Notes under the pieces: model-generated
What the model was told of the DNA's origin: nothing
The model's database searches: none
The model's input: only the letters and a program-made list of their open reading frames with translations
Assembly: GCA_964537895.1 (NCBI GenBank)
Contig: CAZIDK010000003.1
Location: 1,171 to 65,170 of the forward strand
Origin: an uncultured Gammaproteobacteria bacterium
GTDB lineage: Bacteria > Patescibacteriota > Microgenomatia > Levybacterales > UBA12049
Reading direction: 5' to 3'
Length of the DNA stretch: 64,000 bases
Shown here: positions 2,876 through 61,421 of the stretch, one piece after another
Numbering within the stretch: position 1 is the stretch's first letter
How the letters are laid out: each line of letters begins with the position of its first letter
Program-made: the position numbers and the translations under genes

Positions 2876-2959
2876 AGATTAAGTATGATAAAGATAAATA
2901 ATTATGTCAATAAAGCTAATGTAAAGAGCTTGAAAGGATTGATTTTGATATTATTTAGC

Positions 2960-4227: not shown

Positions 4228-4236
4228 TGTTTTCGC

Positions 4237-4701: not shown

Positions 4702-5234
4702 GGTGTGACATTTGGAGTAGATACTCCAAAATTACAAGTTCCTCCGCAAGCGTTAAAAGAAATACCGTTTATTGTTAGACTGGAACAGGCATTTCCACTG
4801 TTACACGCCCCTGGATCGCTACTGCCTCTATCCAGAGAGGCATAAAGATAATAAGATTGTCCAGTAGAGTAGTAAACGTAATTTTTAGAAGCTGTCGGGT
4901 CTTTAGGCAAAAGATTCATGTATGGCTGCCACGATTTCCCCCAATCAATAACTGTTGAACCGGGCGGAACAGTTATTCTGTAAAGCGGTGAGCTTACAGA
5001 AGACAATGGATATTTACCATTATCTTGATAATAGGCCTCTAAGGTTTTTTGCACCTGGGATAAATCCGATTTCCTTCTTGAATCATTTGCCTTTTGAAAT
5101 TGAGCAACAGGATTAAGGGCAACTATTGAGCCCGCAGCCAAGATGGATAATATACCGACAACAACTATTAGTTCTATAAGGGTAAAACCCTTGCTCCGAT
5201 TTGAAATTCTTTTAATCATTTTTATTGTGTACAT
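4698..5234 (-). CDS. GspG-like pilin paralog
   Basis: SKGFTLIELIVVVGILSILA, then LSQVQKTLEAYYQDNGKYP. Confidence 0.8.
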   Translation of the reverse strand: MYTIKMIKRISNRSKGFTLIELIVVVGILSILAAGSIVALNPVAQFQKANDSRRKSDLSQVQKTLEAYYQDNGKYPLSSVSSPLYRITVPPGSTVIDWGKSWQPYMNLLPKDPTASKNYVYYSTGQSYYLYASLDRGSSDPGACNSGNACSSLTINGISFNACGGTCNFGVSTPNVTP

Positions 5235-6091: not shown

Positions 6092-6831
6092 ATAATTAGT
6101 ATGATACCTATAATTGCTCCTGTCAAGAAAGCTAAATACAAGGCTAAAATTATCTTCGGAAAACCCAGTATGAGCCCAAGCAAAAACGACAGTTTTACGT
6201 CTCCAAAACCCATACCTTTACCCTTGGTAATCAAGAATAGAATAAGAAAAAAAACGAATGCCCCAATAGCGGAAAAAACAAAATTGAAAATTGAAAATTG
6301 CCCGTCCCGAGTGAAATCGAGGGGAAAATTGAAAATTAAATAAATAGAGCTTACGATTATTGCCGGGAAGACTACTTTATCCGGAATAATTCCAAATTTT
6401 AAATCTTCAAAAAAAATAACAATAAAACTTGAGACAATAAATAAATAATAAACCAGGCTGATTAAAGATTGAAGATTAAAGATTAAAGAATTAGAAATTG
6501 ACCCGCCTGCAACGCTTTGCATAGCAATGCGGGCAGGAAATTGAAAATTAAGTCCATAAACAAACATAAATGTGGTTAAGAATAAAATTCCCGTAGAAAA
6601 CTCTATGATAGGGTAGAATATACCAATGGACTTATGACAGTATCTGCATTTTCCCTTCAGCATTAAAAACGAGAGTAGGGGAATGAGATCATACCAAGCA
6701 AGTTCTTTTTTACAAAACTCGCAATGTGATCTCCCTTTTGCAATTGTTTCCTTACGAGGCAATCTGTCGATAGCTACATTTAAAAAGGAGCCGATGAAAA
6801 CTCCTATTGCAAATATGAATAAAAACTCCAT
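5962..6831 (-). CDS. pilD: prepilin peptidase (A24 family, PilD/ComC-like) carrying two in-frame repeat-element insertions
   Basis: N-terminal CxxC..CxxC (CEFCKKELAWYDLIPLLS..GKCRYCHKSI), multiple TM helices and a GFGDVKL-type motif. Confidence 0.8.
   Translation of the reverse strand: MEFLFIFAIGVFIGSFLNVAIDRLPRKETIAKGRSHCEFCKKELAWYDLIPLLSFLMLKGKCRYCHKSIGIFYPIIEFSTGILFLTTFMFVYGLNFQFPARIAMQSVAGGSISNSLIFNLQSLISLVYYLFIVSSFIVIFFEDLKFGIIPDKVVFPAIIVSSIYLIFNFPLDFTRDGQFSIFNFVFSAIGAFVFFLILFLITKGKGMGFGDVKLSFLLGLILGFPKIILALYLAFLTGAIIGIILIIWRKKRSIKDTIPFGPFLILGTILALFYGDLLIPKIIIFLGLP
6280..6338. repeat. GAAAATTGAAAATT-flanked GC-core element (variant core CCCGTCCCGAGTGAAATCGAGGGG) in frame inside pilD
   Basis: Encodes FNFPLDFTRDGQFSIFNF. 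Same flanks and orientation as the copy at 1803-1867. Confidence 0.65.
6494..6552. repeat. second element type (core CCCGCCTGCAACGCTTTGCATAGCAATGCGGGCAGG, GAAATTGAAAATT flanks) in frame inside pilD, followed by AGATTAAAG x3
   Basis: Encodes LNFQFPARIAMQSVAGGSISNSLIFNLQSL. The same 36-nt core recurs in intergenic DNA at 43794-43829 and, as a variant, at 18113-18152. Confidence 0.65.
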
Positions 6832-6868
6832 TTTTATTAGTATAACAAATCAGAAGAAAAAATGAGGC

Positions 6869-7501
6869 TTATTTTGTGCACCAGTAGCATTGAGTTGTCC
6901 CGCCATTTCCTTCACAAGCTGTTTGAGGACTGGCAACTGGTGTTCCATCTTTATTATATATAGTAGCTAAAGATTTTCTCTGAGATGTCGATTGCGGCCT
7001 ATAACAGCCTGTAAGCGTATTGGCAGCCAGATCATAAGTAACAAATATTTCTTTCAAGATAGTTGTTGCAGTTTGAAAGCCGGATTTTAATTCTTTTTCA
7101 TTAACAAGTGCTGTCGTACAGGTATTAAGAGGGGTATCGTTTAAGGAAATATTCGGATTGGTTGCTGCGCTTGGGGCCACGCCTCCATTACATGCTGATC
7201 CGCCATTAGCAATGGTATCCCATGGAAAGGTATTACGCGTTGTGTAATATCTTACATTAGCATTAAGATACTCAACTAAAGCATTTTTTGTGTTTGCATC
7301 CTGCGCTTTTTTAAGCTGTTCAAAAGGATCAATTGTTGCAACGAGTGCTGCTGCCAAAACGCCGAGGATTCCGATAACAACCAGAAGTTCGATGAGGGTA
7401 AAGCCTGCGGTCTTTTTTGATAATCCTAATAATTTCTTTAACTTCTCTATCAATTTTTTCATGTCTATATCAAATGTAAACATTTTTAAATTCCTTGTCA
7501 A
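6869..7501 (-). CDS. type IV pilin, major-pilin-like; the likely true start is Met14 at 7462 (MKKLIEKLKKLLGLSKKTAG|FTLIELLVV)
   Basis: Canonical G|FTLIELL cleavage/methylation site and hydrophobic helix. Sits between pilC and pilD. Confidence 0.8.
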   Translation of the reverse strand: MTRNLKMFTFDIDMKKLIEKLKKLLGLSKKTAGFTLIELLVVIGILGVLAAALVATIDPFEQLKKAQDANTKNALVEYLNANVRYYTTRNTFPWDTIANGGSACNGGVAPSAATNPNISLNDTPLNTCTTALVNEKELKSGFQTATTILKEIFVTYDLAANTLTGCYRPQSTSQRKSLATIYNKDGTPVASPQTACEGNGGTTQCYWCTK

Positions 7502-12304: not shown

Positions 12305-12601
12305 ATGAGTCAAACAGAAATAGGCGCACCAACTACGCCAACAGAAGCTAGGGAAACGCAGAGCCCCGAACGACGTCTAGTCTATGGGATCATGAGAAGA
12401 ATAGATAGGAGAGTAGAAAGAACTCTTGCCAATCCAAACTTAACACCCGATCAAATGCAAGAGCTTCTTCTACTTGCTAATCTTACGAAACTTGCCTTGG
12501 AATTAAGATGTCTAATGCCAGCAGTAAGATTTGGCGAAGAACTTGTTGAGCTATCCGATCCCTTAATGATTCCTGAAGCAACTCCCACAGAGCTAGGATA
12601 A
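12305..12601 (+). CDS. hypothetical protein; GC-rich orphan
   Basis: 98-aa ORF starting 9 nt after the holB stop. Markedly higher GC than the flanks. No motifs. Confidence 0.35.
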   Translation: MSQTEIGAPTTPTEARETQSPERRLVYGIMRRIDRRVERTLANPNLTPDQMQELLLLANLTKLALELRCLMPAVRFGEELVELSDPLMIPEATPTELG

Positions 12602-12602
12602 C

Positions 12603-12900
12603 CTCGGGGAAAATTTGAGTTTGAATAAAATGTTTCCACGTATCGATACATCACAACAAAACATTATTACTGTAAGTATACTAGTATATTAGTAATTAGT
12701 TCGACGGAAATAAATCTCAAACTCAGAAAACTAAATAACACAGGGGTCAAAAAAAATTGTGGGGAAAATTTGGGGTTGAATAAAATGTTTTCACGTATCG
12801 ATACATCACTACAAAGCTTTTAGGGGTTCAACCCCTAAAATAGATTGATAATTCAACAAGAACCGAGTAAGTGAAAAATTAAACTGGAGGGGAAAATTTG
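12603..12900. repeat. cluster of interspersed repeats: GGGGAAAATTTG(A/G)GTTGAATAAAATG units, palindromes GTATCGATAC and TATACTAGTATA, REP-like GGGGTTCAACCCC
   Basis: Units at 12605, 12763 and 12892. The block 12630-12695 is about 85% identical to the reverse complement of 54790-54870 and 55640-55720. Confidence 0.7.
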
Positions 12901-12926
12901 GGGTTGAGATTTTTACTTAAAACCGT

Positions 12927-13172
12927 TTATTTTCTGTTTCGGTCTTCAATTTGACGCAATTTACTACCAACAACAAACCCAAAACCCAAAGCAAGTCCCC
13001 ACGACCCAACAAACACAACAGCATCTTCTACGCTATGTATTCCCTTATCAGCTGCGCTTTTCCCTACAATTGCACTCGCTATAGCACTAACACCCGATAC
13101 AACTATAACAGCTTCGTCTCTTTTTATGACCTCCGTTATCCTATGTCTTAGTCCTGGGTTTCTTTCGCTCAT
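12927..13172 (-). CDS. small hydrophobic hypothetical protein
   Basis: 81-aa ORF with two hydrophobic segments, inside the repeat island. Confidence 0.3.
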   Translation of the reverse strand: MSERNPGLRHRITEVIKRDEAVIVVSGVSAIASAIVGKSAADKGIHSVEDAVVFVGSWGLALGFGFVVGSKLRQIEDRNRK

Positions 13173-13256
13173 AAACGGAATTATAGCATGAGGATTTTCT
13201 AAAGCAAATTGGGTGGAAAATTTGGATTTGCTCGCACCGACCCCTGGGGTTGAAAG

Positions 13257-13847
13257 CTAGTCTTCGAAAACTAACTCTTTTACTTGAACTGCTTCTGCTT
13301 CCGAAATGTCATATTCAGTAAATTGTTTATAATCTTTTGCCGGATTATTCGCAGCAAAATAATTAAGTATGTACGAAGAATCTACTAGGTCATCTTTCTT
13401 ACCATCAATATAAGCTGTGTAGCTTGACCAAGGATAAAGCGCAAGCTCAACCCCAGGGGTTGAAATTGGAATCGGATTTCGGTGTATATAGCGGGATACT
13501 TGTAGGAGATACTCATCTGAATCTATTAATTTTGCCTTAAAGCGGCCTTGGAAAAGACTTCCTACTTCATTATATTTAATATTAAAATATTTCGCAAAAC
13601 TGGTCGCCAATCTTAGCATAAAAAACGTGATAGGTAAGTCTGTGTCTTGCCTAAGAAGAAAATGAAAATGATTTGGCATTAAACAATATCCCAAAACGGT
13701 TACTCCAAATTTATCTTTATATTCTCTCGCTCGTTCCAAAAACCTCTTGTAATCTCTATTCTGAAGAAAAATATTTTGCTTTCTATTACCTCTGTTGTAA
13801 ACATGATAATAAGAGTCCTTTCGAAAATATCTAGGAGGAGTAGCCAT
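13257..13847 (-). CDS. HUH/Y1 tyrosine transposase, IS200/IS605-TnpA or REP-associated (RAYT)-like; the ORF is open to 14009 but Met55 at 13847 is the more likely start
   Basis: YHVYNRGNRKQNIF, then the HuH motif LMPNHFHFLL, then catalytic Tyr context SRYIHRNP. GGGGTTGA/TCAACCCC palindromes flank it at 13239-13252 and 13877-13891, and one lies inside at 13447-13461. Confidence 0.6.
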   Translation of the reverse strand: MATPPRYFRKDSYYHVYNRGNRKQNIFLQNRDYKRFLERAREYKDKFGVTVLGYCLMPNHFHFLLRQDTDLPITFFMLRLATSFAKYFNIKYNEVGSLFQGRFKAKLIDSDEYLLQVSRYIHRNPIPISTPGVELALYPWSSYTAYIDGKKDDLVDSSYILNYFAANNPAKDYKQFTEYDISEAEAVQVKELVFED

Positions 13848-14009
13848 GTTCTTAGTAAAACACGAAAGTCTTTCAGCGTCAACCCCAGGGGTTGACGCAT
13901 GGAGATAACTCTTTAAGACGTTTGACGTTTTGGAAAGTTTGGGAGAAAAAGCAGGTTGGCAGGTCGAAGATGCCCTGTGGGTAAAAATTTGGTTTTGAAA
14001 TTTTTGCAC

Positions 14010-14038
14010 TTGACAAGCGTATATACAATGTATATACT
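14010..14038 (+). promoter_or_regulatory. promoter TTGACA-N17-TATACT overlapping the palindrome GTATATACaatGTATATAC; likely autoregulatory operator for the toxin-antitoxin pair
   Basis: Read directly from the sequence, 10 nt upstream of the dinJ ATG. Confidence 0.45.
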
Positions 14039-14047
14039 TTACATATT

Positions 14048-14350
14048 ATGAATACTGCGGTAATCAATATCAAAACTCAACCTGAAACGAAAATAAAAGC
14101 TCAACTGGTCGCAAAAGAACTAGGGCTTAATTTGAGTTCTATTATTAATGCATACCTTACTCAGTTAATAAAAACTAAAACTGTTGCTTTTAGCGTAAGA
14201 GAAGAACCTACTAAATATCTTTTAGAAATGCTTAAGCAGTCACGAAAAGAGATTAAGACCGGAAAAATATCTCGAAGTTTTAGTAAGGCAAGCGATGCAA
14301 TTGGGTATTTGGACAAAATGATTAAAAATGAAAAAAATCAACAGAATTGA
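14048..14350 (+). CDS. dinJ: DinJ/RelB-family antitoxin (type II toxin-antitoxin system)
   Basis: N-terminal ribbon-helix-helix pattern INIKTQPETKIKAQLVAKELGLNLSSIINAYLTQLIKTKTVAF. Overlaps the toxin gene by 23 nt. Confidence 0.7.
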   Translation: MNTAVINIKTQPETKIKAQLVAKELGLNLSSIINAYLTQLIKTKTVAFSVREEPTKYLLEMLKQSRKEIKTGKISRSFSKASDAIGYLDKMIKNEKNQQN

Positions 14351-14609
14351 TTTTTCCGGCCCTTTTGATAAACAACTTAAAAAGGCGCCGCTTAATATAA
14401 AGATTGCTTTCAAGAATAGGCTTACAATATTTATAAAAGACCCATTTAATTCTCAACTAAGAAACCACCAGCTTACAGGAAAACTCAAAAATTACAGAAG
14501 CATAAACATAACAGGCGACTGGCGCGCTTTGTATTCAACAAATGAAATTGATAAAGAAAACGTTGTAATATTCGAAATCCTCGGAACCCACAGTCAGTTA
14601 TATAAATAA
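14328..14609 (+). CDS. yafQ: YafQ/RelE-family toxin (mRNA interferase)
   Basis: 93 aa. HQLTGKLKNYRSINITGDWRALY...VVIFEILGTHSQLY matches the RelE/YafQ fold signature. Confidence 0.7.
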   Translation: MKKINRIDFSGPFDKQLKKAPLNIKIAFKNRLTIFIKDPFNSQLRNHQLTGKLKNYRSINITGDWRALYSTNEIDKENVVIFEILGTHSQLYK

Positions 14610-24832: not shown

Positions 24833-25718
24833 ACCATCTGGCAAAAATCCCGGTTGAAAGAAGTCTATCTCCATCTTTTTCCTGCAAAGCCAATTCCCCG
24901 TATTCAAAATTTCCTCCCAAATCACTTAAGTAATCTTGTAAAACATTATTAAGCATTATTGACGACGAAGAAATTGCGTAAGCGTTAACAATAACAAATA
25001 GGGAATTCTCGGATAAGATATTTTTACAAATTTCCATAAGTTTTGGGAACGACTCGTTGAAATCCCATTTTTCCCCCTCCGGTCCGTGCCCATAAATAGG
25101 AGGATCCATAATTATGGCGTCGTATTTCACATTTCTTTTTACTTCTCTTTGAGTAAATTTTATAGCATCATCTATTATCCAACGGATGGGTTTTTGTAAA
25201 AGCCCCGACGCCTCCTGATTTTCCCGCGCCCAGGAGATAGACGGTTTCGAAGCATCAACGTGTGTCACTTTTGCTCCGTTTGCTGCACAAACTAACGAAG
25301 ATATTCCGGTGTATCCAAACAAATTTAGAACACTAATTTCTCTCTTGTCCTGCCTGCCCGCCTCTGGAGGGAGCTGCCGAAGGGATATTTTTTCTTCCAT
25401 AAAATCCCAGTGCAAAGATTGTTCGGGAAAAACACCCGTGTGTTTAAAAGGGGTAAGCTTGCAAAAAAAAGATAAGTTTTTATATTTTAAAAGCCATTTC
25501 TCCGGAACCTTACCCCTGTTGTCCCAACTTCCCTTATTGCCGTTTTGAATATAGATAGCATCGGCTTTTTCCCAAACGCTATTATCTTTTTTGGGCTTCC
25601 AAGTAATTTGCGGGTCGGGTCTAACTAGCACATATTTTCCAAAGCGCTCTAATCTTTGGCCGTTACCGCTATCAATAAGTTCGTAATCCTCAAAGCCTTT
25701 CGTCGAAAGAACATTCAT
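24825..25718 (-). CDS. class I SAM-dependent methyltransferase with DPPxY motif and a PUA-like N-terminal domain (RlmI/RlmL-like rRNA methyltransferase)
   Basis: FGYTGISSLVCAANGAKVTHVDAS (motif I) and IIMDPPIYGHG (motif IV). Confidence 0.55.
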   Translation of the reverse strand: MNVLSTKGFEDYELIDSGNGQRLERFGKYVLVRPDPQITWKPKKDNSVWEKADAIYIQNGNKGSWDNRGKVPEKWLLKYKNLSFFCKLTPFKHTGVFPEQSLHWDFMEEKISLRQLPPEAGRQDKREISVLNLFGYTGISSLVCAANGAKVTHVDASKPSISWARENQEASGLLQKPIRWIIDDAIKFTQREVKRNVKYDAIIMDPPIYGHGPEGEKWDFNESFPKLMEICKNILSENSLFVIVNAYAISSSSIMLNNVLQDYLSDLGGNFEYGELALQEKDGDRLLSTGIFARWSK

Positions 25719-26674
25719 ATTAGTCTTTCTTTAAGAAACTGCTTAAAATCAGCAATACTTTTTTCGTTGTAGATAGAAATTGTCAAAACCGGCTTTTCAA
25801 ATTTTTTCAATTTGCTTATATTTTTTTCTAACGCGTTCTCATCTACAAGATCTGTTTTTGTTAAAAGTATTATTTCCGGTTTGGCAATTAAAATTTTGTC
25901 GTATTCCTTAAACTCATTTCTAACCGTTTTATATGCCTTAACAACGTCCTCTATTGTGGAATCTATGCAGTGAATAAGAAGCTCTGTTTTTTCAACGTGT
26001 TTAAGAAATTTTATCCCCAAACCCCTGCCTTTCGATGCTCCTTCCATTAAACCGGGGATATCGCCAAGAACAATTCCATCAAGAACTCCCAAGTTTGGTT
26101 CAAGCGTTGTAAACGGATAATTACCGATTTTAGGATGCGCATTGGTTAGCTCTTTAAGCAAACTGCTTTTACCTGCATTCGGAAATCCGATAAAGCCAAC
26201 TTGAGCGATAAGTCTCAATTCCAGACGGACGACTTTTTCTTCTCCGCGGGTCCCGTCCTCGGCTTGCATTGGAGCCTGATTTGTTGCGGATTTAAACTCG
26301 TTATTGCCTCTGCCGCCTTTACCTCCCAAAGCTAAAACAACTTGCGTTGTTATATCTGTAATTTCGTAAGCCTTACCTGCTGCCTCTGTAATCCTTGTTC
26401 CCAAAGGAACTTTTATAATAATATTTTCTCCGTTTCTGCCGTATAGGTTTTGTTTTTTCCCAGGAATTCCATTTTCCGCATAAATTTTCTTCTTATACCT
26501 AAATTCACCAAGATCAAAAACATCGGTTGACCCTTGGAAAAAAACACTTCCGCCATTTCCCCCATTGCCTCCATCGGGACCGCCTCTTGCCGTCCTTGCA
26601 TTTCTCATAAAAGAAACGGAACCATTGCCGCCGTCGCCGGCTTTTATCATTATGGTAATATCGTCTATTAACAT
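25715..26674 (-). CDS. obg: GTPase Obg
   Basis: Glycine-rich Obg fold GDGGNGSVSF..GGPDGGNGGNGGSVFF, then the G1 motif GFPNAGKSSLL. Confidence 0.92.
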   Translation of the reverse strand: MLIDDITIMIKAGDGGNGSVSFMRNARTARGGPDGGNGGNGGSVFFQGSTDVFDLGEFRYKKKIYAENGIPGKKQNLYGRNGENIIIKVPLGTRITEAAGKAYEITDITTQVVLALGGKGGRGNNEFKSATNQAPMQAEDGTRGEEKVVRLELRLIAQVGFIGFPNAGKSSLLKELTNAHPKIGNYPFTTLEPNLGVLDGIVLGDIPGLMEGASKGRGLGIKFLKHVEKTELLIHCIDSTIEDVVKAYKTVRNEFKEYDKILIAKPEIILLTKTDLVDENALEKNISKLKKFEKPVLTISIYNEKSIADFKQFLKERLI

Positions 26675-29079: not shown

Positions 29080-30057
29080 CTACTTATTACCAGAATGAAA
29101 TGATTTGTGGACGTCGTGAAGCTGTTTATTGGTGATGTGAGTGTAAATTTGCGTTGTGGCTATATTCTTGTGCCCCAGCATTTCCTGAACACTTCTAATA
29201 TCCGCTCCGTTTGTCAGAAGGTCTGTTGCGAATGAGTGGCGGAATGTGTGAACGGTTGCGTCAACCGGAATTCTGGCACTCCTTACATATTTTTTTACCA
29301 AGCGCTCAACGCTTCGGGCTGTTAACCTCATTTTTTCCCCTCCGTTTTCTTGGATAATTGCTCCGGAATACCTGATAAAAAGAGGTTTAAAACTATCCTC
29401 GCGTTTATCAAGATAACGCTTTATCCATTCCGCAGCCCTGCCGGAAACAAAAACCAGCCTTGATTTCCCGCCTTTTCCAATAACCCCAAATTCTCGCCTT
29501 TCCAAATTTATTCTATCCCTGTTTAATCCGACAAGTTCCGAAACCCTAAGCCCGGTGGAAAAGAGAAGCTCCATTATCGCTCTGTCCCTTAAGCCTTCCT
29601 CTTTTGACGTATCTGTCGCTGTTACAAGCCTGTCAACTTGTTCTTTTTCTAAAAATTTTAGACTGCGGCTTTCGGTTCTTGGAAGATCAATTTTTGAAGG
29701 CTCCAGGGTTTCGTGGTCGTTTTTTATTAAAAATCTAAGGAATGACCGGAGGGCAATAACGTAATAATTCTGCGTAACACGCATTAAGGTTAAGCCTTTA
29801 GCATCGGCCCTATTTGCCAAAAAAACTCTATATTTTCTAACCGTGGCCAAATCTAAAGTTTCTAAAGTTTTTCCGTGTGAGGTAGTGGAGAACCATTGAT
29901 TAAAAACATCCAAATAATGTCTGTAATCCCGAATAGTAAGCTTAGAACAATTTTTTTCTATTTCAAGATATTCCAAAAATTCGTCTATGAACCCCGAAAG
30001 AGCAGTATTTTCTTCCATAAATCTAAAAATTAACCGTTTTGGTAAAGCTAGCTTCAT
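29080..30057 (-). CDS. tyrosine recombinase XerC/XerD-like
   Basis: C-terminal HTFRHSFATDLLTNGADIRSVQEMLGHKNIATTQIYTHI with the catalytic R..H..R..Y. Confidence 0.85.
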   Translation of the reverse strand: MKLALPKRLIFRFMEENTALSGFIDEFLEYLEIEKNCSKLTIRDYRHYLDVFNQWFSTTSHGKTLETLDLATVRKYRVFLANRADAKGLTLMRVTQNYYVIALRSFLRFLIKNDHETLEPSKIDLPRTESRSLKFLEKEQVDRLVTATDTSKEEGLRDRAIMELLFSTGLRVSELVGLNRDRINLERREFGVIGKGGKSRLVFVSGRAAEWIKRYLDKREDSFKPLFIRYSGAIIQENGGEKMRLTARSVERLVKKYVRSARIPVDATVHTFRHSFATDLLTNGADIRSVQEMLGHKNIATTQIYTHITNKQLHDVHKSFHSGNK

Positions 30058-33125: not shown

Positions 33126-33176
33126 GCGCCGTATACGAATAGTACTGAAAAGGCGCAAAGTAAGATTAGGCGGACC
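33126..33176. repeat. nested-hairpin element GCGCCGTATACGAATA..AAAGGCGCAAAGTAAGATTAGGCGG inside a roughly 1-kb noncoding region
   Basis: Related to the copies at 36915-36980 and 43765-43868. Perfect 9-bp stem CTTTGCGCC/GGCGCAAAG. Confidence 0.5.
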
Positions 33177-36078: not shown

Positions 36079-36915
36079 TTAAAATTTCAGATCCCTTAAA
36101 GCATCTTTACCGATAATTATTGTAACATCCGAAATGTCTCTTTGGGAAGACTTAACTGGTTTTACCCTCAAAAATGAAGCCAGTCTTTTAACCGTGTAAT
36201 TTAAGTCGCCCGAGTATAAAATCTGAGAGTTATCTTGAGGTTTATCCGAAGAAGAGACCAAAACTACATCTCCGCCTATATTGGCAATAAGAAACGCCAG
36301 TCTATTTGCCAATCCGTAAACTCTTGTAGCATTAATAATCTCTACCGTTGTTTTTTCATTTGCTATTGCCGAGTCTATAAAAAAAGATGAAACAAAAGCA
36401 TTAATAGTCAGAGTATCGCTGCTTAAAGCATCTCTTTGGTAAATAAAATCTATAGAAACATCTTTAGCAAAAAGCCAGAGTCTTAGGGCGTCAATAATTG
36501 TTAGGCTCGTATCTTGATCGCTGTATTGAAATAAAATTCTTGACATATCCAACGCAAGATTTTTCTTATCAATTATCATCTTGTTTGTCTTAAGCGTTGC
36601 ATCTATGGGAAGACCTATATATTGACTTATATTGTGATTGGAGAATTTACCTTTCAAATTAATAACCGCAATCGAGCGGGTTGCCGGTGAAAAAGAAACA
36701 ACCGAAACTTGAGTATCTTGAAATATACCTACATTAAATCTATTTTGACCGTCAAAACTGCTATTTTTTATTAAAATTAGAGTTTTTACGGCAATTGACA
36801 TTAAAATCAATAAAAATACCAAAGCACAAAAAACAATAGCAACGCTTAAGGTTTTACCTTTCTGTTTTTTCCGTTTCATAAGGATTAGTCTTTCTTTGAG
36901 CCCAACTAAAATCAC
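36079..36915 (-). CDS. membrane-anchored protein with a LytR_C-like C-terminal domain; start uncertain (GTG at 36915 or ATG at 36879)
   Basis: VEIINATRVYGLANRLAFLIANIGGDVV resembles the LytR C-terminal domain. One TM helix. Confidence 0.45.
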   Translation of the reverse strand: MILVGLKERLILMKRKKQKGKTLSVAIVFCALVFLLILMSIAVKTLILIKNSSFDGQNRFNVGIFQDTQVSVVSFSPATRSIAVINLKGKFSNHNISQYIGLPIDATLKTNKMIIDKKNLALDMSRILFQYSDQDTSLTIIDALRLWLFAKDVSIDFIYQRDALSSDTLTINAFVSSFFIDSAIANEKTTVEIINATRVYGLANRLAFLIANIGGDVVLVSSSDKPQDNSQILYSGDLNYTVKRLASFLRVKPVKSSQRDISDVTIIIGKDALRDLKF

Positions 36916-36980
36916 TCCGTGAACCGTATTCGAATAGAATAGAAAGGCGAACGGTAAGATTAGGCGGGTTTCTTTTTTGA
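36915..36980. repeat. intergenic element CTCCGTGAACCGTATTCGAATA..AAAGGCGAACGGTAAGATTAGGCGGG followed by a T-run
   Basis: Shared with 43765-43868 and partly with 33126-33176. Confidence 0.55.
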
Positions 36981-37150: not shown

Positions 37151-37288
37151 GCACGTTCGATGCGACTCAGTACAAAAAATGCTGAGCGCAGTCGCACGTT
37201 CGATGCGACTCAGTACAAAAAATGCTGAGCACAGTCGCACATTCGACAATGCTCAGTGCGATACTGAGTTTATCGAACGTATCGAAGG
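37151..37288. repeat. tandem 43-bp hairpin repeat (2 full units plus an inverted partial unit)
   Basis: GCACGTTCGATGCGACTCAGTACAAAAAATGCTGAGC(G/A)CAGTC twice; the third unit ends with inverted TCGAACGT. Confidence 0.7.
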
Positions 37289-37299: not shown

Positions 37300-38091
37300 T
37301 TATTGGCTGATTACCTTACTCAATTCCCCAGGCAATGGAGACTCTAATAAGACTTGCTTATTGGTTATTGGGTGTATGAATGAAATTTTGTGTGCGTGCA
37401 AGAAAACGCGCTTGAGAATTTTTCTGTCCTGCCTTGAGGTTTTTCTTCCCGCATATAAAAAGTCAGCAAAAATAGGATGACTAAAATACTTTAAGTGAAC
37501 TCTTATCTGATGCGTTCTTCCTGTTTCCGGATAAAGCTCCAGGAGGCTCATCGGCTCTTCTTTTTTTCCCGATACTAAATACTTAATACTTAATACTTTA
37601 TACTTCGTAACCGCTTCCCTACCGCCTGCCAAAACCCCAAACTTTTTTCTGTTCCAAGGCAGTCTTCCGACAGGAACATTTATTTCTCCTATCTCCGGCA
37701 CAACTTTCCCGTGGCAAAGCGCAAGATAAGTTTTTTTTATAACTCTTTCTTTAAACTGTTTTTGCAGATTTTCAAAAGCCGGAAGGGTTTTGGCAACAAG
37801 TAAAATTCCCGAAGTTTCTTTATCAAGCCTATGAACTATTCCGCTTCTTTTATAAAAATCCGACTCCTCGTCAATTCTGAATTCTGCCCGCCCCGCTTCG
37901 CTTGTCGAGGCTGGAGAACTCTGCCCGCCCCGCTTCGCTTGTCGAGGCCGGGGAACTCTGAATTTACTGTCCAGCCAATCCTGTACCGTTTCCTCCCCTA
38001 TCGTAGTATCGGAACGATTAACAGTTATTCCCGCGGGCTTATCCAAAACCAAAACGTCATCGTCCTCGTAAATTATTTTAATATTACTCAT
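37300..38091 (-). CDS. RluA-family pseudouridine synthase with an in-frame tandem repeat-element insertion
   Basis: HRLDKETSGILLVAKT catalytic motif. The insert encodes RVPRPRQAKRGGQSSPASTSEAGRAEF just before the catalytic loop. Confidence 0.85.
   Translation of the reverse strand: MSNIKIIYEDDDVLVLDKPAGITVNRSDTTIGEETVQDWLDSKFRVPRPRQAKRGGQSSPASTSEAGRAEFRIDEESDFYKRSGIVHRLDKETSGILLVAKTLPAFENLQKQFKERVIKKTYLALCHGKVVPEIGEINVPVGRLPWNRKKFGVLAGGREAVTKYKVLSIKYLVSGKKEEPMSLLELYPETGRTHQIRVHLKYFSHPIFADFLYAGRKTSRQDRKILKRVFLHAHKISFIHPITNKQVLLESPLPGELSKVISQ
37868..37985. repeat. two tandem copies of the GC-core element CTGCCCGCCCCGCTTCGCTTGTCGAGGC(C/T)GG(G/A)GAACT flanked by GAATT repeats, in frame inside rluA
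   Basis: Core is near-identical to 1818-1850. The copies are 40 nt apart, so they are read in two different frames. Confidence 0.7.
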
Positions 38092-42144: not shown

Positions 42145-42206
42145 AGTGCATATTGTAACATTTGCACTTCGAAAAATAAAGCCTTTCTGGTATAATATGT
42201 GCGTTA

Positions 42207-42289
42207 GGGCAAGTGGCGGAATGGTATACGCGGTAGTCTCAAAAACTACTGGTCGCAAGGCCGTGAGGGTTCGACTCCCTCTTTGCCCA
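42207..42289 (+). tRNA. tRNA-Leu (anticodon CAA), class II with long variable arm
   Basis: Acceptor GGGCAAG/UUUGCCC + A73. Three-bp D stem. Anticodon stem GUAGU/ACUAC with loop CUCAAAA. Variable arm UGGUCGCAAGGCCGU. T arm GAGGG-UUCGACU-CCCUC. A TATAAT lies at 42191-42196. Confidence 0.88.
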
Positions 42290-42304
42290 CTAGGGTTCGC
42301 CGGG

Positions 42305-43237
42305 TCAAGATATCTTTGAAGTGTTAGGCTGAACTAATTTATCTTCCGATCGGCTACGTAAAGCGCTTGGATCAATTCTTTTTATCAACTTTGTTAAAAC
42401 GTCTCCGGCTCCAACCTCTATATATTCTCCTACACCGTCCTTTTGCATAAGTCTTACTGAATCTAGCCATAGAACCCTTCCTGTTAATTGATCTACTAAG
42501 CCTCGTCTAATTTGCTCTCCTGTAGACGCATAATTTCCGGTTATATTTTGAATAAAAGGTACTTTTGGATCGGCAATAGGTTCTTGTTGAAGCAACAATT
42601 CCATATTTTGTCTCGCGGGCTCCATCAAAGAACAATGCGATGCGATACTTACTCGTAAGCGTTTTACTTTTCTGTCTCCAAGTCTATCTACAACGTATGT
42701 AACCGAATCATTGCTTCCGGATATAACTATCTGCGTGTAGCTATTTATATTTGCGATTTCCGCTCCCGATTCTTCACATATTTTCTCAACCTCAGAAAGT
42801 TCTAGTCCTAAAACTGCTGCCATTCCTCCTGGATTTATTCGTCCGGCGGATTCCATAAACTTACCCCTCGCGTTTACCAAACTTACTGCCTGCGCGAAGC
42901 TTAAAGCTTCTGCAGCAACAAGCGCAGAGAATTCTCCTAAGCTATGTCCAGCAACTACATCTGGTTTTAAATCGTAATAACCAAGTGCTCTCAAGGCAGC
43001 AATACTTGTTACTAGGATTGCCGGTTGGGTAATTTCTGGCCTGTCTAATTCTTCATCTGGACCATTCAAGCACAATGAGCTTAGATTTGTTTGTAAAATA
43101 TCATCGGCTTCTTCATAAAGTCTGCAGGTCAAAGTAGATATATCCGGGTTTCTAAATAAAAACTCTGACATTCCTGTGCGTTGTGTCCCTTGTCCTGGAA
43201 AAACAAATGCTTTGCGATATTCTTTTTCTGCGTACAT
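42305..43237 (-). CDS. fabD: ACP S-malonyltransferase
   Basis: GHSLGEFSALVAAEALSF active-site Ser motif and GQGTQ near the N-terminus. Confidence 0.88.
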   Translation of the reverse strand: MYAEKEYRKAFVFPGQGTQRTGMSEFLFRNPDISTLTCRLYEEADDILQTNLSSLCLNGPDEELDRPEITQPAILVTSIAALRALGYYDLKPDVVAGHSLGEFSALVAAEALSFAQAVSLVNARGKFMESAGRINPGGMAAVLGLELSEVEKICEESGAEIANINSYTQIVISGSNDSVTYVVDRLGDRKVKRLRVSIASHCSLMEPARQNMELLLQQEPIADPKVPFIQNITGNYASTGEQIRRGLVDQLTGRVLWLDSVRLMQKDGVGEYIEVGAGDVLTKLIKRIDPSALRSRSEDKLVQPNTSKIS

Positions 43238-43594: not shown

Positions 43595-43764
43595 TAATTA
43601 TTCACCCCCCTTCGCCACGTCTGACGTGGCTTCGCCCCGCAAAGTTCTGCATTACAGAACGACGTGGGGTTCCCTTTATATAATATTCGTGAATTGAAAA
43701 TCATAGCTTTATTGCACAAACCATTGCTTCGGGAGAACAAGTCCCCCCTGTCCGACTTAAAACG

Positions 43765-43868
43765 CTCCGTGAGCCGTATTCGAATAAAATTGACCTGCCC
43801 GCATTGCTATGCAAAGCATTGCAGGCGGGAAAGGCGAACGGTAAGTTTAGTCGGATTCCCGTTTTTTG
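43765..43868. repeat. composite element: the CCGTATTCGAATA..AAAGGCGAACGGTAAG..T-run element with a nested CCTGCCCGCATTGCTATGCAAAGCATTGCAGGCGGG element inserted inside
   Basis: Outer part aligns with 36915-36980. Inner 36 nt (43794-43829) is the reverse complement of 6502-6537. Confidence 0.6.
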
Positions 43869-52931: not shown

Positions 52932-53729
52932 TTAATTGAATTCCAAAAATAAAGGCAGATGGTCGGAGACCTCATCTTGCAAAACTTTAAAATTTAAAAC
53001 TTTTACATCTTTTGACACTAATACATAGTCGGCATATTTATCTTTTCTTGTATGCAGGTTACTTCTTGTACTTTTAACATTATACTTCTTAATTAGATTA
53101 ACCATTTCCTCTTCCAGTACAAACATGCTCTTCGTGTTCGGGTTTAGATTAAAATCCCCGCAAAGAATTTTTCTATGTTTATATGAATCCAGGAATTTTG
53201 TTATTTTGTCCGATTGTTCCAATCTTTCCGGTGTATCTTCTTTTGATTCGGAAATCCAATATCCATGCAGATTAGCAATCAAAGTTTCTTTTTTATCTTT
53301 CTCTATATTAACAAAATGGATGTTCCTTGGAAAATCCATAAACTGCCCATTCCTTACGGGTTTTGTGTGCTCTTGACCATACGAGCCATAAACAAAAATA
53401 TCTCCTTCGGATAAAACCTTTATTGATTTTCTGACAAAAGTAGCCTGTCCAAAAAATAGCTCAAAATCTACCTTTTCCTTAGTATCGTGTCCTGCAAACA
53501 TCGGGACGAAATAACCATTGTAATCTTTTAAAATATTGGCAATATCGGAATAAATATTCGTCTTTATATCATTATGAAAAATATTTCTGTCGGATTTGAA
53601 TACTTCCTGAAAGCAGAAAATGTCAACCGTTTCACTTTGTTTTTTTAAAAAACTTATCAGCGGTTCGTAAACTTGCCCTCCCCAAATATTTAACGTAATT
53701 AATTTCATTTTTATTCTTTTCCTTCCCAT
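52932..53729 (-). CDS. endonuclease/exonuclease/phosphatase (EEP) family protein
   Basis: LITLNIWGG motif with Asp/His catalytic residues. Its start overlaps the upstream gene's 3-prime end by 19 nt. Confidence 0.7.
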   Translation of the reverse strand: MGRKRIKMKLITLNIWGGQVYEPLISFLKKQSETVDIFCFQEVFKSDRNIFHNDIKTNIYSDIANILKDYNGYFVPMFAGHDTKEKVDFELFFGQATFVRKSIKVLSEGDIFVYGSYGQEHTKPVRNGQFMDFPRNIHFVNIEKDKKETLIANLHGYWISESKEDTPERLEQSDKITKFLDSYKHRKILCGDFNLNPNTKSMFVLEEEMVNLIKKYNVKSTRSNLHTRKDKYADYVLVSKDVKVLNFKVLQDEVSDHLPLFLEFN

Positions 53730-54364
53730 TCTTTAAAGAATTTCTGAAGAAACTCTTCCATATATTTATGTCTTCCTAGTGCGATTTGTCTTGCGGTTTC
53801 AGTATTCATTCTGTCTTTTAAAAGCAGCAGTTTTTCATAGAAATGATTTATGGTCGGGCTCTTGCTGTTTTTATATTCTTCAAATGAATTATGCAGAATC
53901 GGTTTTAAGTTTGGGTTGTGGATTTCGTGCCCCATTTTTCCTCCATATGCGAAAGTCCTGGTAATTCCAATTGCGCCAATCGCATCCAGCTTATCCGCGT
54001 CCTGCACAACCATCCCCTCTTTTGTTTTCATTTGAGATTTTACGTTTGCTCCCCTAAAACTTATATCTTTTATAATTTGACAAACGTGCACAATATATTT
54101 TTCTTCGACATTAAGCGTTTTCAGCCACTTCCTTGCGGTTTTTGGTCCGATTTCTTCGTTCCCTCCGTGTAATTTCCAGTCGGCGATATCATGCAAGAGG
54201 GCGGCTACTTCTACTACAAACATATCAACCTTTTCTGTTTTTCCGATATGTTTTGCCATTTTCCAAACCCTATAAACATGCCACCAGTCATGTCCGCTCG
54301 CCTCCCCTTCCAGGATTTTTTTGGCATAATCCGCAGTTTTTTGAATTATTATTTTTTTATCCAT
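53711..54364 (-). CDS. HD-domain phosphohydrolase (YedJ-like)
   Basis: H..HD...LLHDIAD motifs. Confidence 0.7.
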   Translation of the reverse strand: MDKKIIIQKTADYAKKILEGEASGHDWWHVYRVWKMAKHIGKTEKVDMFVVEVAALLHDIADWKLHGGNEEIGPKTARKWLKTLNVEEKYIVHVCQIIKDISFRGANVKSQMKTKEGMVVQDADKLDAIGAIGITRTFAYGGKMGHEIHNPNLKPILHNSFEEYKNSKSPTINHFYEKLLLLKDRMNTETARQIALGRHKYMEEFLQKFFKEWEGKE

Positions 54365-54407
54365 CGATGTTGATTATATCACGCAGAAAACTTGCGGGAG
54401 GGAAAAT

Positions 54408-54752
54408 TTATATTTCCATTTTATCTTTTATTTTTTCAAGTCCGGCTTTAGTCATTTTCCCTTCTTTTATTAACTTTTTTATTCTTTCCTTATTACTCTC
54501 CGATAAATTGCTTTTTTCTTTTCTTGGGGTAAATCTGCCGGCAAATGTTTCCCTATCAATCCCCTTTTCTATGCTATCTATCCAGCCAAAACAAAGAGCT
54601 TCTTCAACCGCATCGTTATAGGAAATTGTTGGTTTTCCTGTTGTTTTCTTGTAATAGATAAGCCAAATCTCCTTTTCCTTATCGTAGTTTTTAGAAAACC
54701 ACTTTCTCCACTCTTTCCTATTTGTTACATAAAGAGTTTTTCCAATATTCAT
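54408..54752 (-). CDS. YdeI/OmpD-associated (OmdA) family protein
   Basis: W..W......EIWLIYYKK..GKPTISYNDAVEEALCFGWIDS, the family signature. Confidence 0.6.
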   Translation of the reverse strand: MNIGKTLYVTNRKEWRKWFSKNYDKEKEIWLIYYKKTTGKPTISYNDAVEEALCFGWIDSIEKGIDRETFAGRFTPRKEKSNLSESNKERIKKLIKEGKMTKAGLEKIKDKMEI

Positions 54753-54756
54753 AAAC

Positions 54757-54906
54757 CAATTATACCACGGGAAAATTTGAAACTAAAGAAAAAATAGATT
54801 ACTGCAGATATACTAGTATACTTGTAATAAAAGGATTATGTAGTGATGTATCAATACATTAAAACATAATCAACTAAATAAATATCGGGGTGAAAATAAA
54901 CGCGGG
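54757..54906. repeat. 150-bp module (copy 1) holding an extended -10 promoter TGGTATAAT (minus strand) 6 nt from the ATG plus palindromes TGTATCAATACA and TATACTAGTATA
   Basis: About 95% identical to 55598-55748. Both copies abut the start codon of a minus-strand gene. Confidence 0.75.
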
Positions 54907-54969
54907 AGAAATTGGTTTTGCTAATCATAAAGTTTTGGCATATAATAAAATTAAAGGAGGTGATTTGAA

Positions 54970-55176
54970 ATGCTAGACGAAAGAGGAGAAACTCCGCGTC
55001 CCCCGGAAGTTCCTGAAAAAGCTCCCGAGTCCGGAGCTACACCGCCAGTTCTTCCTAAACCTGAGGCTGAAACATCAGTTCCTAAACCAGATTCATTATT
55101 AGACAAGCTGCAATCAGAAGCGACTAGGACAATTGGCGCAGGAAAAAGCGGACAAAGCGGCAGCTCCCATACTTAA
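54970..55176 (+). CDS. small Pro-rich hypothetical protein
   Basis: Strong RBS AAAGGAGGTG. 68-aa GC-rich ORF. Confidence 0.35.
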   Translation: MLDERGETPRPPEVPEKAPESGATPPVLPKPEAETSVPKPDSLLDKLQSEATRTIGAGKSGQSGSSHT

Positions 55177-55240
55177 ATCTTGAGTAGATTATAACATGTG
55201 GAGAAGGTTGAGGCGGGAAAACTTGCGGGAGAGAAAATTT

Positions 55241-55594
55241 CTATGAAACCATTATCTTATCGTCTGCTACCGAAGGAAATCTGATAGTTTGAACAACGAT
55301 TTCATCGCTCAAAACTTTTTTTATGCAAACTGTGATCTTTGGCGGAATAATTAAATAATCCCCCTCATTCATTTCTACTTCCTGTCCGTCGACCTCCCAA
55401 ATTCCCTTTCCATTCCAAATAATATCAAGTTTCGTTGAGGTCTTATTAAAATGGGGCTTGGATGAAAAAGATTTATCAAGCTTTGCTATTTTTATTTCTG
55501 CCCTATCATCTTTCGCTAAACCTTCCGGCATAAAACTTCCATAAATCCACCCGTTTCTTTCTTTTTCTTCGAATGCATTTCCTTTTTTATACAT
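55241..55594 (-). CDS. cupin-like small protein
   Basis: 117 aa with a beta-rich pattern including G.W.V.G.....EGDYLIIPP. Confidence 0.4.
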   Translation of the reverse strand: MYKKGNAFEEKERNGWIYGSFMPEGLAKDDRAEIKIAKLDKSFSSKPHFNKTSTKLDIIWNGKGIWEVDGQEVEMNEGDYLIIPPKITVCIKKVLSDEIVVQTIRFPSVADDKIMVS

Positions 55595-55597
55595 AAG

Positions 55598-55748
55598 TTG
55601 ATTATACCACGGGGAAATTTGAAACTAAAGAAAAATAGATTACTGCAGATATACTAGTATACTTGTAATAAAAGGATTATGTAGTGATGTATCAATACAT
55701 TAAAACATAATCAACTAAATAAATATCTGAGTGAAAAATAACTCGGGA
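55598..55748. repeat. 150-bp promoter/operator module (copy 2)
   Basis: See copy 1 at 54757-54906. Confidence 0.75.
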
Positions 55749-55782
55749 GGAATTGGGAGAAGACGTAATACGATCGTAATCC

Positions 55783-56478
55783 CTACTCAGATTTTACATT
55801 TTCCCCTAGTTCTTTAACATCACCATGTTGTCTATGGAATAAATAATGCATGAATCCTCCCATCCTTTTTCCTTCTTTATCAATAGTTTTTTTATCTAGA
55901 GATATGAAGCTAAATGTGCCCATAATTGGTTGCAAATTCATTATCTCCTTCTCTATTACAAAACCTTGCTCCACCATATACTCGTCATTATTAAAATTAC
56001 TGAAATATACTACAGCAGTTAGTCTACTTCTCAATCCACCCCTTGAGTCTTCTTTGTATCTTATGTTTTCGAAATCTTTTTTGGGTATATGAATATGAGT
56101 TTTGGAACTAACTCCTCTTTCTATATAGTCTATCGAGTGTTCCGATACTGCTACGATTTCGCTTGTTTCCCTATCATAAAATTCTACTTGAATTTCAAAC
56201 GCTGGACCATTTCCAATATTTTTTAAGCTACATTCTACACAATACGTATCTTGCTTAAATTTTTTGTTTTCACTTCCGATGTTAAATTCCTCAGCTATAA
56301 CCAATGGGAGCATGCTGTCTTTTCTTTGTTTTGATATTTCCCTAACGGTAGCTCTAGTTTGATATGCGTAATAAATAGTTACCAAAATCAGCACAACTGT
56401 TGAGAAAGACTGTACTGCTGTTAAAGCTATAATGGGATTCATGGAGACAATATTAGAACTATTAACTATAATTGTCAA
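55783..56478 (-). CDS. membrane-anchored hypothetical protein
   Basis: N-terminal TM helix; 231 aa. Confidence 0.45.
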   Translation of the reverse strand: MTIIVNSSNIVSMNPIIALTAVQSFSTVVLILVTIYYAYQTRATVREISKQRKDSMLPLVIAEEFNIGSENKKFKQDTYCVECSLKNIGNGPAFEIQVEFYDRETSEIVAVSEHSIDYIERGVSSKTHIHIPKKDFENIRYKEDSRGGLRSRLTAVVYFSNFNNDEYMVEQGFVIEKEIMNLQPIMGTFSFISLDKKTIDKEGKRMGGFMHYLFHRQHGDVKELGENVKSE

Positions 56479-60464: not shown

Positions 60465-61421
60465 TTAGGCGGGCCCTAAATACATTATTTCTTCTTCCAA
60501 TTCAATATTGAATTTTTCTCTGACCGCATTTTTGGCAAAAATAATTAAAGTTTTTACATCGCTTGAAGTCGCATTGCCCAAATTGACAATAAAATTAGGG
60601 TGCTTATCGGAAATCATCGCCTCTCCTTCTTTTTTACCTTTAACGTTTGCAAGAAAAAGTAATTTGGCAGAAGGAATAAGAGGAAACGGGTCATTTTTTA
60701 TGTATTGAGCGAGCTCTCTTTTCCAATTTTCCGGAACGGACTCGACTTTTACATTTTTAAAAGTACTGCCGATGTTTGGATATTCCATCGGATGTTTTGT
60801 ATTTCTGTAATCTATTTTTTCTTGAATTGAGTTTTTTATCGCTTCTTTATCACCGGTTTGCAAACCAAGAGCCACCGATAAAATAATCTCATTTTTCCCC
60901 TGCTCCGATTTAAAGAAACTGTAACGATAATCAAAAAGGCATTCCAGATTTGTTCTTTTCTTTTCCTCAAAGGTGTTAAAATTTAAGCTTACTACTTCTT
61001 TTACGCTATCCCTTATTTCACCCATAAAAGCTCCGGCATTCCCCCTAACAGCACCGCCAATTGTTCCAGGTAATCCTCCTGCCCACTCTAAACCGGATAA
61101 TTGATTTTCAATGCAAAAACTTAAAATTTGCAAAACTAAAACTCCGGCTCCGACAATCAAACCTTCTTCTTTTTTTTCTATCCCCGAGATATTATTATAA
61201 ATAACTAAACCCTCAAAACCCTTTTCGCTTATTAAAATGTTCGTTCCTTTTCCTAAAACAAAAATTCTTTTTTTATTGTCCGGAAAAGCTGACGAAATCT
61301 CTTTCCATTTCCTTAGGCCTTCTAACAACTGCTCTTTTGTTGAAATTTCGAGGAAATAAGATGCGGGTCCGCCTATTTTGTAATTGCTGTAATCTTTAAG
61401 GGGAACATTTTGTCTAATCAT
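60465..61421 (-). CDS. murB: UDP-N-acetylenolpyruvoylglucosamine reductase
   Basis: FAD-binding N-domain (LGKGTNILIS) and GGLPGTIGGAVRGNAGAF. Confidence 0.85.
   Translation of the reverse strand: MIRQNVPLKDYSNYKIGGPASYFLEISTKEQLLEGLRKWKEISSAFPDNKKRIFVLGKGTNILISEKGFEGLVIYNNISGIEKKEEGLIVGAGVLVLQILSFCIENQLSGLEWAGGLPGTIGGAVRGNAGAFMGEIRDSVKEVVSLNFNTFEEKKRTNLECLFDYRYSFFKSEQGKNEIILSVALGLQTGDKEAIKNSIQEKIDYRNTKHPMEYPNIGSTFKNVKVESVPENWKRELAQYIKNDPFPLIPSAKLLFLANVKGKKEGEAMISDKHPNFIVNLGNATSSDVKTLIIFAKNAVREKFNIELEEEIMYLGPA

Follow-up and report, generated by a model that had tools for sequence, protein, structure and literature searches.

Highly similar regions upstream of non-paralogous genes have been described as putative mobile promoters; their definition was based on leadered genes and covered positions −150 to −50 (Matus-Garcia, Nijveen & van Passel 2012, PMC3575422). 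A second described system of relevance is YerC of B. subtilis, which is HisR, a TrpR-family repressor whose palindromic operators are also found at its own gene (PMC9413887). We analysed a 64,000-nt stretch of contig CAZIDK010000003.1 (hereafter, the window), in which two near-identical upstream regions, referred to as blocks A and B, precede a DUF8412/OmdA-like gene and a cupin gene. This pair is a member of the class of putative mobile promoters (PMC3575422). We lean, with restrained confidence, towards the reading that the blocks carry an upstream regulatory module, probably with a YerC/YecD-type operator, which may have spread by recombination through a variable hot spot whose small genes each have their own promoter. 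The coordinates of all features are provided in Table 1.

Blocks A and B share approximately 95% identity over 157 nt, the alignment containing one 1-nt indel. Each begins immediately behind the reverse-complemented ATG of a gene on the minus strand, and, read on that strand, both end with CGTGGTATAAT-N6-ATG. The initial annotation, which had described near-identical blocks abutting two start codons, an extended −10 sequence 6 nt from each ATG and palindromes further upstream, was accurate on these points. In the gene sense, block A consists of a distal S motif, the palindromes O2 and P1, a proximal S motif, the extended −10 and a 6-nt spacer. P1 (TATACTAGTATA) is a perfect palindrome and is found three times in the window, against an expectation of 0.1. 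O2 is a longer palindrome than previously described, extending imperfectly over 28 bp around TGTATCAATACA in both blocks; the O2 sequence GTGATGTATCRATACRT occurs four times in the window, against an expectation of 0.02. Copy counts reported here cover the 64-kb window and the fetched loci of relatives. The two downstream genes share no DNA similarity beyond the ATG-proximal bases and are not paralogous; an exact look-up of the cupin protein returned no record. The junction between the OmdA-like gene and its block is reproduced in independent Logan assemblies, which end 67 nt into block A, where a de Bruijn graph would be expected to branch at a genuine repeat. A terminator consensus scan of both blocks found none. 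The strict 25-nt core has no match in IMG/VR, and a phage origin was therefore rejected.

Putative mobile promoters are called at an identity of at least 80% over at least 50 nt upstream of non-paralogous genes, and the blocks lie well within these limits (PMC3575422). They resemble the members of this class also in being common to a related genome and in lacking an established route of mobilisation (PMC3575422). In contrast to them, the similarity between the blocks reaches to within 6 nt of the ATG, as the genes are predicted to be leaderless; moreover, the core −10 is native to each gene, and only the upstream part has moved.

In both blocks the −10 sequence is placed for a start at or near the ATG, and no Shine-Dalgarno sequence is present. 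With 6 nt separating the hexamer from the ATG, transcripts would begin at or beside the start codon and be translated without a leader. The same layout recurs elsewhere. TGnTAnAAT is found 27 times in the window, and in 8 of the 27 cases the ATG of an open reading frame (ORF) of at least 80 aa is located 6–8 nt away; other distances between 0 and 30 nt are never represented more than once each. These eight include obg (25715..26674), an acyltransferase gene (42305..43237) and murB (60465..61421), all assigned by Pfam, as well as the HD-domain hydrolase gene of the hot spot and an 81-aa gene in an island described below. In two relatives (L005 and L011), almost all genes of the hot spot, rpmE included, have CGTGRTATAAT at a distance of 6–9 nt from their ATG. 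YerC/YecD genes are also preceded by an extended −10 with leaderless geometry.

The extended −10 promoter with leaderless geometry is the ordinary promoter type of this lineage. Leaderless expression of both genes, as initially proposed, is thus soundly predicted by promoter geometry but generic: since the same promoter is found at many genes and at orthologues that have no block, the block is not its source. We found no papers on leaderless promoters in Patescibacteria in the literature searched. Leaderless transcription from extended −10 promoters is well known in Actinobacteria, for instance in Mycobacterium tuberculosis. The genes analysed here resemble actinobacterial leaderless genes in having the −10 located 6–8 nt from the start, no Shine-Dalgarno sequence, and a layout common to many genes; they differ in that their leaderless starts are predicted from sequence geometry. 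A stable RNA gene features a similar promoter: in the region 42188-42290, TGGTATAAT is located 10 nt before the mature 5′ end of tRNA-Leu(CAA). The gene divergent from this tRNA has TGTTACAAT 7 nt before its ATG, and the two form a compact back-to-back promoter pair.

Five relatives of the locus were compared with the window. L001 (CAYIOB010000002.1), retrieved by motif scan, is a syntenic relative whose core proteins are 79–93% identical to those of the window. It is labelled “uncultured Gammaproteobacteria bacterium”, probably wrongly, as it is syntenic with the window and its protein homologues are labelled Patescibacteria. The remaining four (L005, L011, L021 and L022) were fetched through homologues of the HD protein. 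In each of the five, the interval from rpmE/prfA to Exo_endo_phos/EamA/hisS has its own complement of small genes, and the locus is a hypervariable array of small, individually promoted genes.

The module is distributed unevenly in these genomes. In the sister genome L001, a full block, 92% identical to block A, precedes the HD gene, which in the window is preceded only by a stub of the block. A diverged copy, 74–78% identical to blocks A and B, precedes the Exo_endo_phos gene of L001. The module is absent upstream of the OmdA-like, cupin, HD and Exo genes of the other four relatives. Orthologues that have no block nonetheless carry the core promoter. For instance, the OmdA-like orthologue in L011 (87% identity) has its own TGGTATAAT-N6-ATG, the cupin orthologue in L005 (69% identity) has CAATTTTCCCTGTGATATAAT-N6-ATG, and the HD genes of all four relatives have an extended −10, none of them with a distal block. 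Some of these OmdA-like, cupin and HD orthologues also keep the S motif. As orthologues carry a native −10 in front of which no block is found, the copied part is a distal module of approximately 135 bp, and not the core promoter. Judged from these comparisons, the native extended −10 predates the block at each gene, and the module would have been added later. In public collections, the strict 25-nt core is found in one genome and one metagenome contig, the diverged copies falling outside the search pattern.

Block A is a mosaic. Its right end corresponds to the HD copy of L001, while its flank, occupied by a unit with a proline-rich ORF, corresponds to the flank of the Exo copy. The switch occurs exactly after AATTGG. 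The mosaic structure indicates that copies recombined with each other.

S motifs (in the gene sense C[C/A]AATTTYCYCCCG, also CAAATTTYCCC) are found at both ends of each block. These GGGAAAATTTG-like sequences had been described as inverted; they are direct repeats, on one strand only (Table 1). Each of the four module copies in the window and L001 is flanked by this one repeat, the S motif, and variable target duplications are not observed. The view of the blocks as a mobile promoter resembling a miniature inverted-repeat transposable element (MITE) is thus only partly sustained. The genes that the distal module precedes differ between two sister genomes, and four other genomes lack it, a presence/absence polymorphism expected of such elements. 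However, the module does not qualify as a MITE, because the blocks have neither terminal inverted repeats nor differing target-site duplications. In the reading that we favour, the two blocks would be copies of one intergenic regulatory region in a hot spot of Patescibacteria (candidate phyla radiation, CPR). Each gene would be transcribed from its own extended −10 (TGGTATAAT), and the module, bounded on each side by an S copy in direct orientation, would have been placed by recombination at the S motif common to hot-spot promoters.

The O2 palindrome belongs to a family of sites that flank regulator genes. In a short metagenome contig (L002), two O2 cores bracket a gene whose product is in the Pfam family Trp_repressor (E = 6.7e-12). 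Homologues of this protein were used to fetch further loci (L014, L015/L016 and L017/L018), independently of the motif. The 28-bp palindrome, TGTTnnnATGTATYRATACATnnnAACA (TGTT[nnn]ATGTATYRATACAT[nnn]AACA in the loci fetched through the protein), flanks the YerC/YecD gene in all four independent Patescibacteria loci. The upstream site ends 7–16 nt before the extended −10 of the regulator gene, and a second site is located directly downstream of it, before the next gene (Vut_1, HIT or DHFR). A matrix trained on only the six protein-derived sites, with 20 shuffles of the window as background, gave scores of 40–44 for the training sites, 42.8 and 37.2 for two O2 copies in the island, and 33.9 for each of the two blocks and for the HD copy of L001, whereas the best score in the shuffles was 8.1. 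Pairing between variable arm positions, analysed in 11 sites, is not above that of shuffles (35–68 of 500 shuffles reach the observed value), and the arms are often unpaired. This argues for a two-half-site protein operator rather than a hairpin.

O2 is most likely bound by a YerC/YecD-type regulator. As in the HisR and TrpR systems, the palindrome is found beside the promoter of a Trp_repressor-family gene and beside neighbouring operons, in an autoregulation-type layout, and the regulator is of the YerC/YecD branch (PMC9413887). In contrast, O2 is 28 bp long and is neither the 20-bp cacTTTAnnnnnnTAAAgtg of HisR nor the TGTAcTnGTnnACnAgTACA of TrpR (PMC9413887). The neighbourhood also differs from that of HisR, consisting of thyA, NUDIX, the regulator and folA instead of his genes, which suggests that YerC/YecD in Patescibacteria may control a thymidylate/folate regulon rather than a histidine regulon. 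The interval between thyA/NUDIX and folA around the YerC/YecD genes (L002, L014, L015, L017 and L018) hosts variable genes, namely, Vut_1, F420_ligase-like and HIT genes. A further difference from HisR operators is that in the blocks the site, itself putative, is distant from the promoter.

Binding of O2 by such a regulator (HisR-like, of the TrpR family) would tie the genes downstream of the module to its regulon. The common regulon proposed in the initial annotation gains genuine support, as O2 belongs to the family of sites flanking YerC/YecD, but the geometry is less favourable. Several observations weigh against a regulatory role of the module at the two genes. O2 ends approximately 72 nt upstream of the extended −10, its TGTATCAATACA core being approximately 84 nt away, which is an atypical position for a repressor. 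Any regulatory effect would thus have to be exerted from about −100, as O2 is centred ~100 nt upstream of the predicted start, whereas it abuts the promoter at YerC/YecD genes. The block copies are the weakest of the family. No YerC/YecD homologue was found by tblastn in the 64-kb window or in related loci, and no connection of DUF8412 or cupin genes with the thyA/folA surroundings of the regulator is apparent. The O2 of the blocks may be inactive or may act on another promoter, possibly one that uses the TATACT of P1.

The P1 palindrome is located 18 nt beyond O2, a spacing kept in the blocks and in island copy 1. As P1 features TATACT on both strands, a second promoter controlled by O2 is conceivable. 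P1 is absent at YerC/YecD loci. Elsewhere, a P1-like sequence is found only in the relB promoter, at 14022, a lead from which no claim is drawn.

A different account of the blocks is that they are neutral by-products of segmental duplication and gene conversion in a hot spot prone to recombination; the palindromes would then be remnants of the source regions and would not regulate the two genes. Such an origin is consistent with the distance of O2 and P1 from the functional −10, with the degeneracy of the block O2, which is the most pronounced of the family, with the decayed, gene-less state of the island copies, and with the absence of the module from four of five related genomes, which marks it as dispensable. 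Yet blocks are conserved between genomes at a level similar to that of coding DNA: block A is 92% identical to the L001 HD copy, compared with 88% for the HD coding DNA and 71% for the neighbouring, rpmE-proximal intergenic DNA. Moreover, the spacing between O2 and P1 is kept in a diverged island copy, and the O2 of the island scores as high as the sites at regulator genes. Overall, we regard a neutral origin as distinctly unlikely.

The palindromes may alternatively be thought to act as RNA, either as a small RNA, as a cis-regulatory leader transcribed from an upstream promoter, or as an intrinsic terminator insulating cassettes. The entire block is more stably folded than shuffled sequences (z = −3.7 for the plus strand and −2.9 for the minus strand), a conserved T-run follows P1 in the gene sense, and P1 as present in L001 yields stable hairpins (−7 to −15 kcal/mol). 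However, such z-scores are to be expected from the two palindromes alone, and the P1 hairpin of the window (−3.1 kcal/mol) is no better than those of shuffles on either strand. In Rfam searches, only tRNA-Leu is above the gathering threshold in the window, and the region 54300-55900 gave no match even at E ≤ 1. A structured RNA was rejected on these grounds, as P1 folding is inconsistent across the four block copies and O2 covariation is no better than in shuffles; we assign it a very small probability.

Sequences related to the blocks are also found in an island (12600-13230) that hosts two partial copies. The initial annotation had reported the same block in this region. A related sequence is indeed present with no gene attached, but it is a diverged partial relative rather than a copy, with 78% identity over 60 nt at 12630-12689 and 90% identity over 29 nt at 12785-12813. 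The island copies have neither a −10 nor a gene, and 9-bp inverted repeats are seen only around these two copies. Beside the island lies a gene encoding a Y1 (IS200-like) HUH transposase homologue that resembles transposases associated with repetitive extragenic palindromic (REP) sequences. The protein matches Pfam Y1_Tnp, and its best NCBIfam match, which is weak (50 bits against a cutoff of 80), is the REP-associated tyrosine transposase (RAYT) family NF047646; it has no match among PDB sequences. S motifs flank the gene at 13213-13231 and ~13975-14005, together with CAACCCCWGGGGTTG palindromes. The gene is syntenic next to holB in the relative L019, which indicates that it is not itself moving.

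CAACCCCWGGGGTTG occurs at three conserved places of the Y1 locus in three genomes, one ~35 nt ahead of the gene start, one within the coding sequence, as codons for TPGV, and one immediately behind the stop. The positions are 13241-13253, 13447-13463 and 13879-13895 in the window, 3762-3777, 4195-4209 and 4403-4417 in L019, and ~630-646, 1064-1078 and 1278-1298 in L020. The window contains GGGGTTGA 11 times, where 1.6 occurrences are expected; eight of the copies lie at the Y1 locus. In both the window and L019, the Y1 gene is bracketed by S motifs, and an O2-containing element is located nearby, on opposite sides in the two genomes; only four O2 copies occur in the 64 kb. A RelB/YafQ toxin-antitoxin pair (14048..14350 and 14328..14609, within 13975-14609) has the promoter TTGACA-17-TATACT 9 nt before its ATG, where a tandem GTATATAC-AAT-GTATATAC resembles P1.

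This arrangement bears on how the module may have moved. S motifs in direct orientation surround every module as well as the RAYT-like gene; a site-specific mechanism accounts for them no less well than homologous recombination does, and to that extent they weigh against the reading that we favour. The distal module could be a non-autonomous mobile element, excised and inserted site-specifically at S by an enzyme acting in trans, either the RAYT-like Y1 HUH protein or a tyrosine recombinase. The Y1 protein would operate by single-strand “peel and paste”, as in miniature elements derived from IS200/IS605, and S motifs would serve as att-like or cleavage sites. The direct, single-strand orientation of S at every module boundary and its recurrence on either side of the RAYT-like gene (window and L019) are in line with this scheme, as are the O2 elements beside that gene in both genomes, although on opposite sides, the presence/absence differences among close relatives, the mosaic junction located exactly at the S boundary, and the fact that contigs carrying RAYT-like homologues are mostly short.

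Other features are difficult to reconcile with a trans-mobilised element. Only two full and two partial copies are present in the 64 kb, with two in the sister locus, and the 25-nt core is confined to the one genome and one contig already mentioned. Neither terminal inverted repeats nor variable target duplications accompany the blocks; the RAYT-like gene stays next to holB, and its flanking palindrome, CAACCCCWGGGGTTG, is another sequence. Furthermore, the GTAG tetranucleotide is not conserved in the O2 family, and the S motifs of L005 simply belong to promoters of module-free cassettes. We therefore hold mobilisation in trans to be unlikely, although a credible minority reading, and retain recombination among module copies as the preferred one.

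Like REP sequences and their REPIN doublets with RAYT, and like promoter-bearing miniature elements of the Correia and enterobacterial repetitive intergenic consensus (ERIC) types, O2 elements are short palindromic intergenic repeats, with one cluster located beside a RAYT-like gene and copies located near promoters. O2 had first been read as a REP element consisting of GTAG and a hairpin; this assignment was rejected, as the tetranucleotide varies among the 11 aligned sites (TGTAG, TGTTG and TGTTT). In contrast to these families, O2 has no conserved 5′ GTAG and a low copy number, the palindrome around the RAYT-like gene is a different one, and the blocks feature neither terminal inverted repeats nor TA-type target duplications.

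The locus also recalls integrons and the pdif modules of Acinetobacter, in which arrays of small genes in the same orientation are split by a short recurring site and some modules have no ORF. However, no integron integrase is found beside the array, the only tyrosine recombinase of the window being ~25 kb away; attC-type R′/R′′ boxes are not seen by eye, and each cassette has its own promoter. The recombinase (29080-30057) carries Phage_integrase and SAM_1 domains and is XerC/D-like. The 28 bp of O2 can be parsed as 11-6-11, in the manner of Xer sites. ATAA/TTAT inner arms are typical of dif; O2 lacks such arms. A bolder extension, to which we give little credence, is that S may be the recombination or cleavage site of a new integron-like cassette system in which small genes with their own leaderless promoters, ORF-less O2-P1 modules and the RAYT-like gene are bounded by direct S sites on one strand. 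If this were true, a domesticated Y1 HUH enzyme or a tyrosine recombinase would shuffle cassettes and modules between two loci, the holB-RAYT island and the rpmE-hisS hot spot.

Table 1 Features of the duplicated blocks, of the surrounding hot spot and of the related island (window coordinates).
Feature	Position	Strand	Description
Block A	54753..54915	-	Upstream region of the DUF8412/OmdA-like gene
Extended −10, block A	54759..54767	-	TGGTATAAT, 6 nt before the OmdA-like ATG
Proximal S motif, block A	54768..54779	-	Gene sense CAAATTTTCCCG, fused to the extended −10
P1, block A	54809..54820	.	Perfect palindrome
P1, block A, extended	54799-54830		Imperfect inverted repeat
O2, block A	54839..54866	.	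28-bp imperfect palindrome TGTAGTGATGTATCAATACATTAAAACA
Distal S motif, block A	54901..54915	-	Gene sense CCAATTTCTCCCGCG, far block boundary, same orientation as proximal S
Block B	55595..55757	-	Upstream region of the cupin gene
Extended −10, block B	55601..55609	-	TGGTATAAT, 6 nt before the cupin ATG
Proximal S motif, block B	55610-55621		
P1, block B	55650..55661	.	
O2, block B	55680..55707	.	
Distal S motif, block B	55742-55756		
OmdA-like gene	54408..54752	-	114 aa, DUF8412
Cupin gene	55241..55594	-	117 aa, weak Cupin_2 matches
HD-domain hydrolase gene	53711..54381	-	Own TGATATAAT (54373-54381), 8 nt before the ATG
28-nt repeat	54386-54413	-	Plus strand GAAAACTTGCGGGAGGGAAAATTTATAT, overlaps the OmdA-like stop codon, holds an S motif
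28-nt repeat, second copy	55217-55244		Overlaps the cupin stop codon
Unit found after block A only	54916..55216	+	Promoter TTGCTA-17-TATAAT, Shine-Dalgarno AAGGAGG, 68-aa proline-rich ORF (54970-55176)
Convergent extended −10	55188-55196		TGTTATAAT, antisense into the 3′ end of the proline-rich ORF, conserved
Island copy 1	12606..12730	+	S motif, O2 (12631-12658), P1 (12677-12688), 9-bp inverted repeat TGAGTTTGA/TCAAACTCA
Island copy 2	12761..12840	+	S motif, O2 (12786-12813), bounded by GGGGTTGAA/TTCAACCCC, P1 absent
Y1 (IS200-like/RAYT-like) HUH transposase homologue	13257..13847	-	196 aa, beside the island

A third direct S copy is located just 3′ of each of the two genes, within the 28-nt repeat. 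The unit found only after block A, which holds a putative coding region, the proline-rich ORF, has a counterpart in L001 (3298-3575), where the whole unit follows the block copy of the Exo_endo_phos gene. Between L001 and the window, this ORF differs by an in-frame 9-nt indel and by substitutions distributed as 16/7/12 over the three codon positions. Its strong Shine-Dalgarno sequence, AAGGAGG, is unusual amid leaderless genes.

Additional repeats were identified elsewhere in the window. In the region 1742-7406, six copies of a 55-nt repeat (60–73% identity) are located at one end of consecutive minus-strand ORFs, and a 300-nt repeat is found at 2416-2715 and 3693-3992 (97% identity); the region looks like a family of paralogous small genes. 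The GC-rich repeat TGCCCGCCCCGCTTCRCTTGKCGAGGC is present in three copies (1821-1861 and 37885-37962), two of which are in tandem near 37.9 kb. A perfect 43-nt tandem duplication maps to 37151-37236. Intergenic repeats with GAAAGGCGAACGGTAAGATTAGGCGG, 83–88% identical, are located ~6.9 kb apart at 36902-36978 and 43752-43865, and also at 33149-33173.

Regulation in bacteria of the candidate phyla radiation is almost unstudied. None of the observations overturns a current idea; they provide entry points for experiments. The promoter grammar, in which CGTGRTATAAT is followed after 6–8 nt by the ATG, predicts widespread leaderless expression in this lineage. The 28-bp palindrome is a candidate operator for the YerC/YecD branch of TrpR-family regulators, found beside thyA/folA rather than his genes. 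The blocks would represent a natural instance of the transfer of an upstream regulatory module from one gene to another, unrelated one within a variable hot spot of cassettes.

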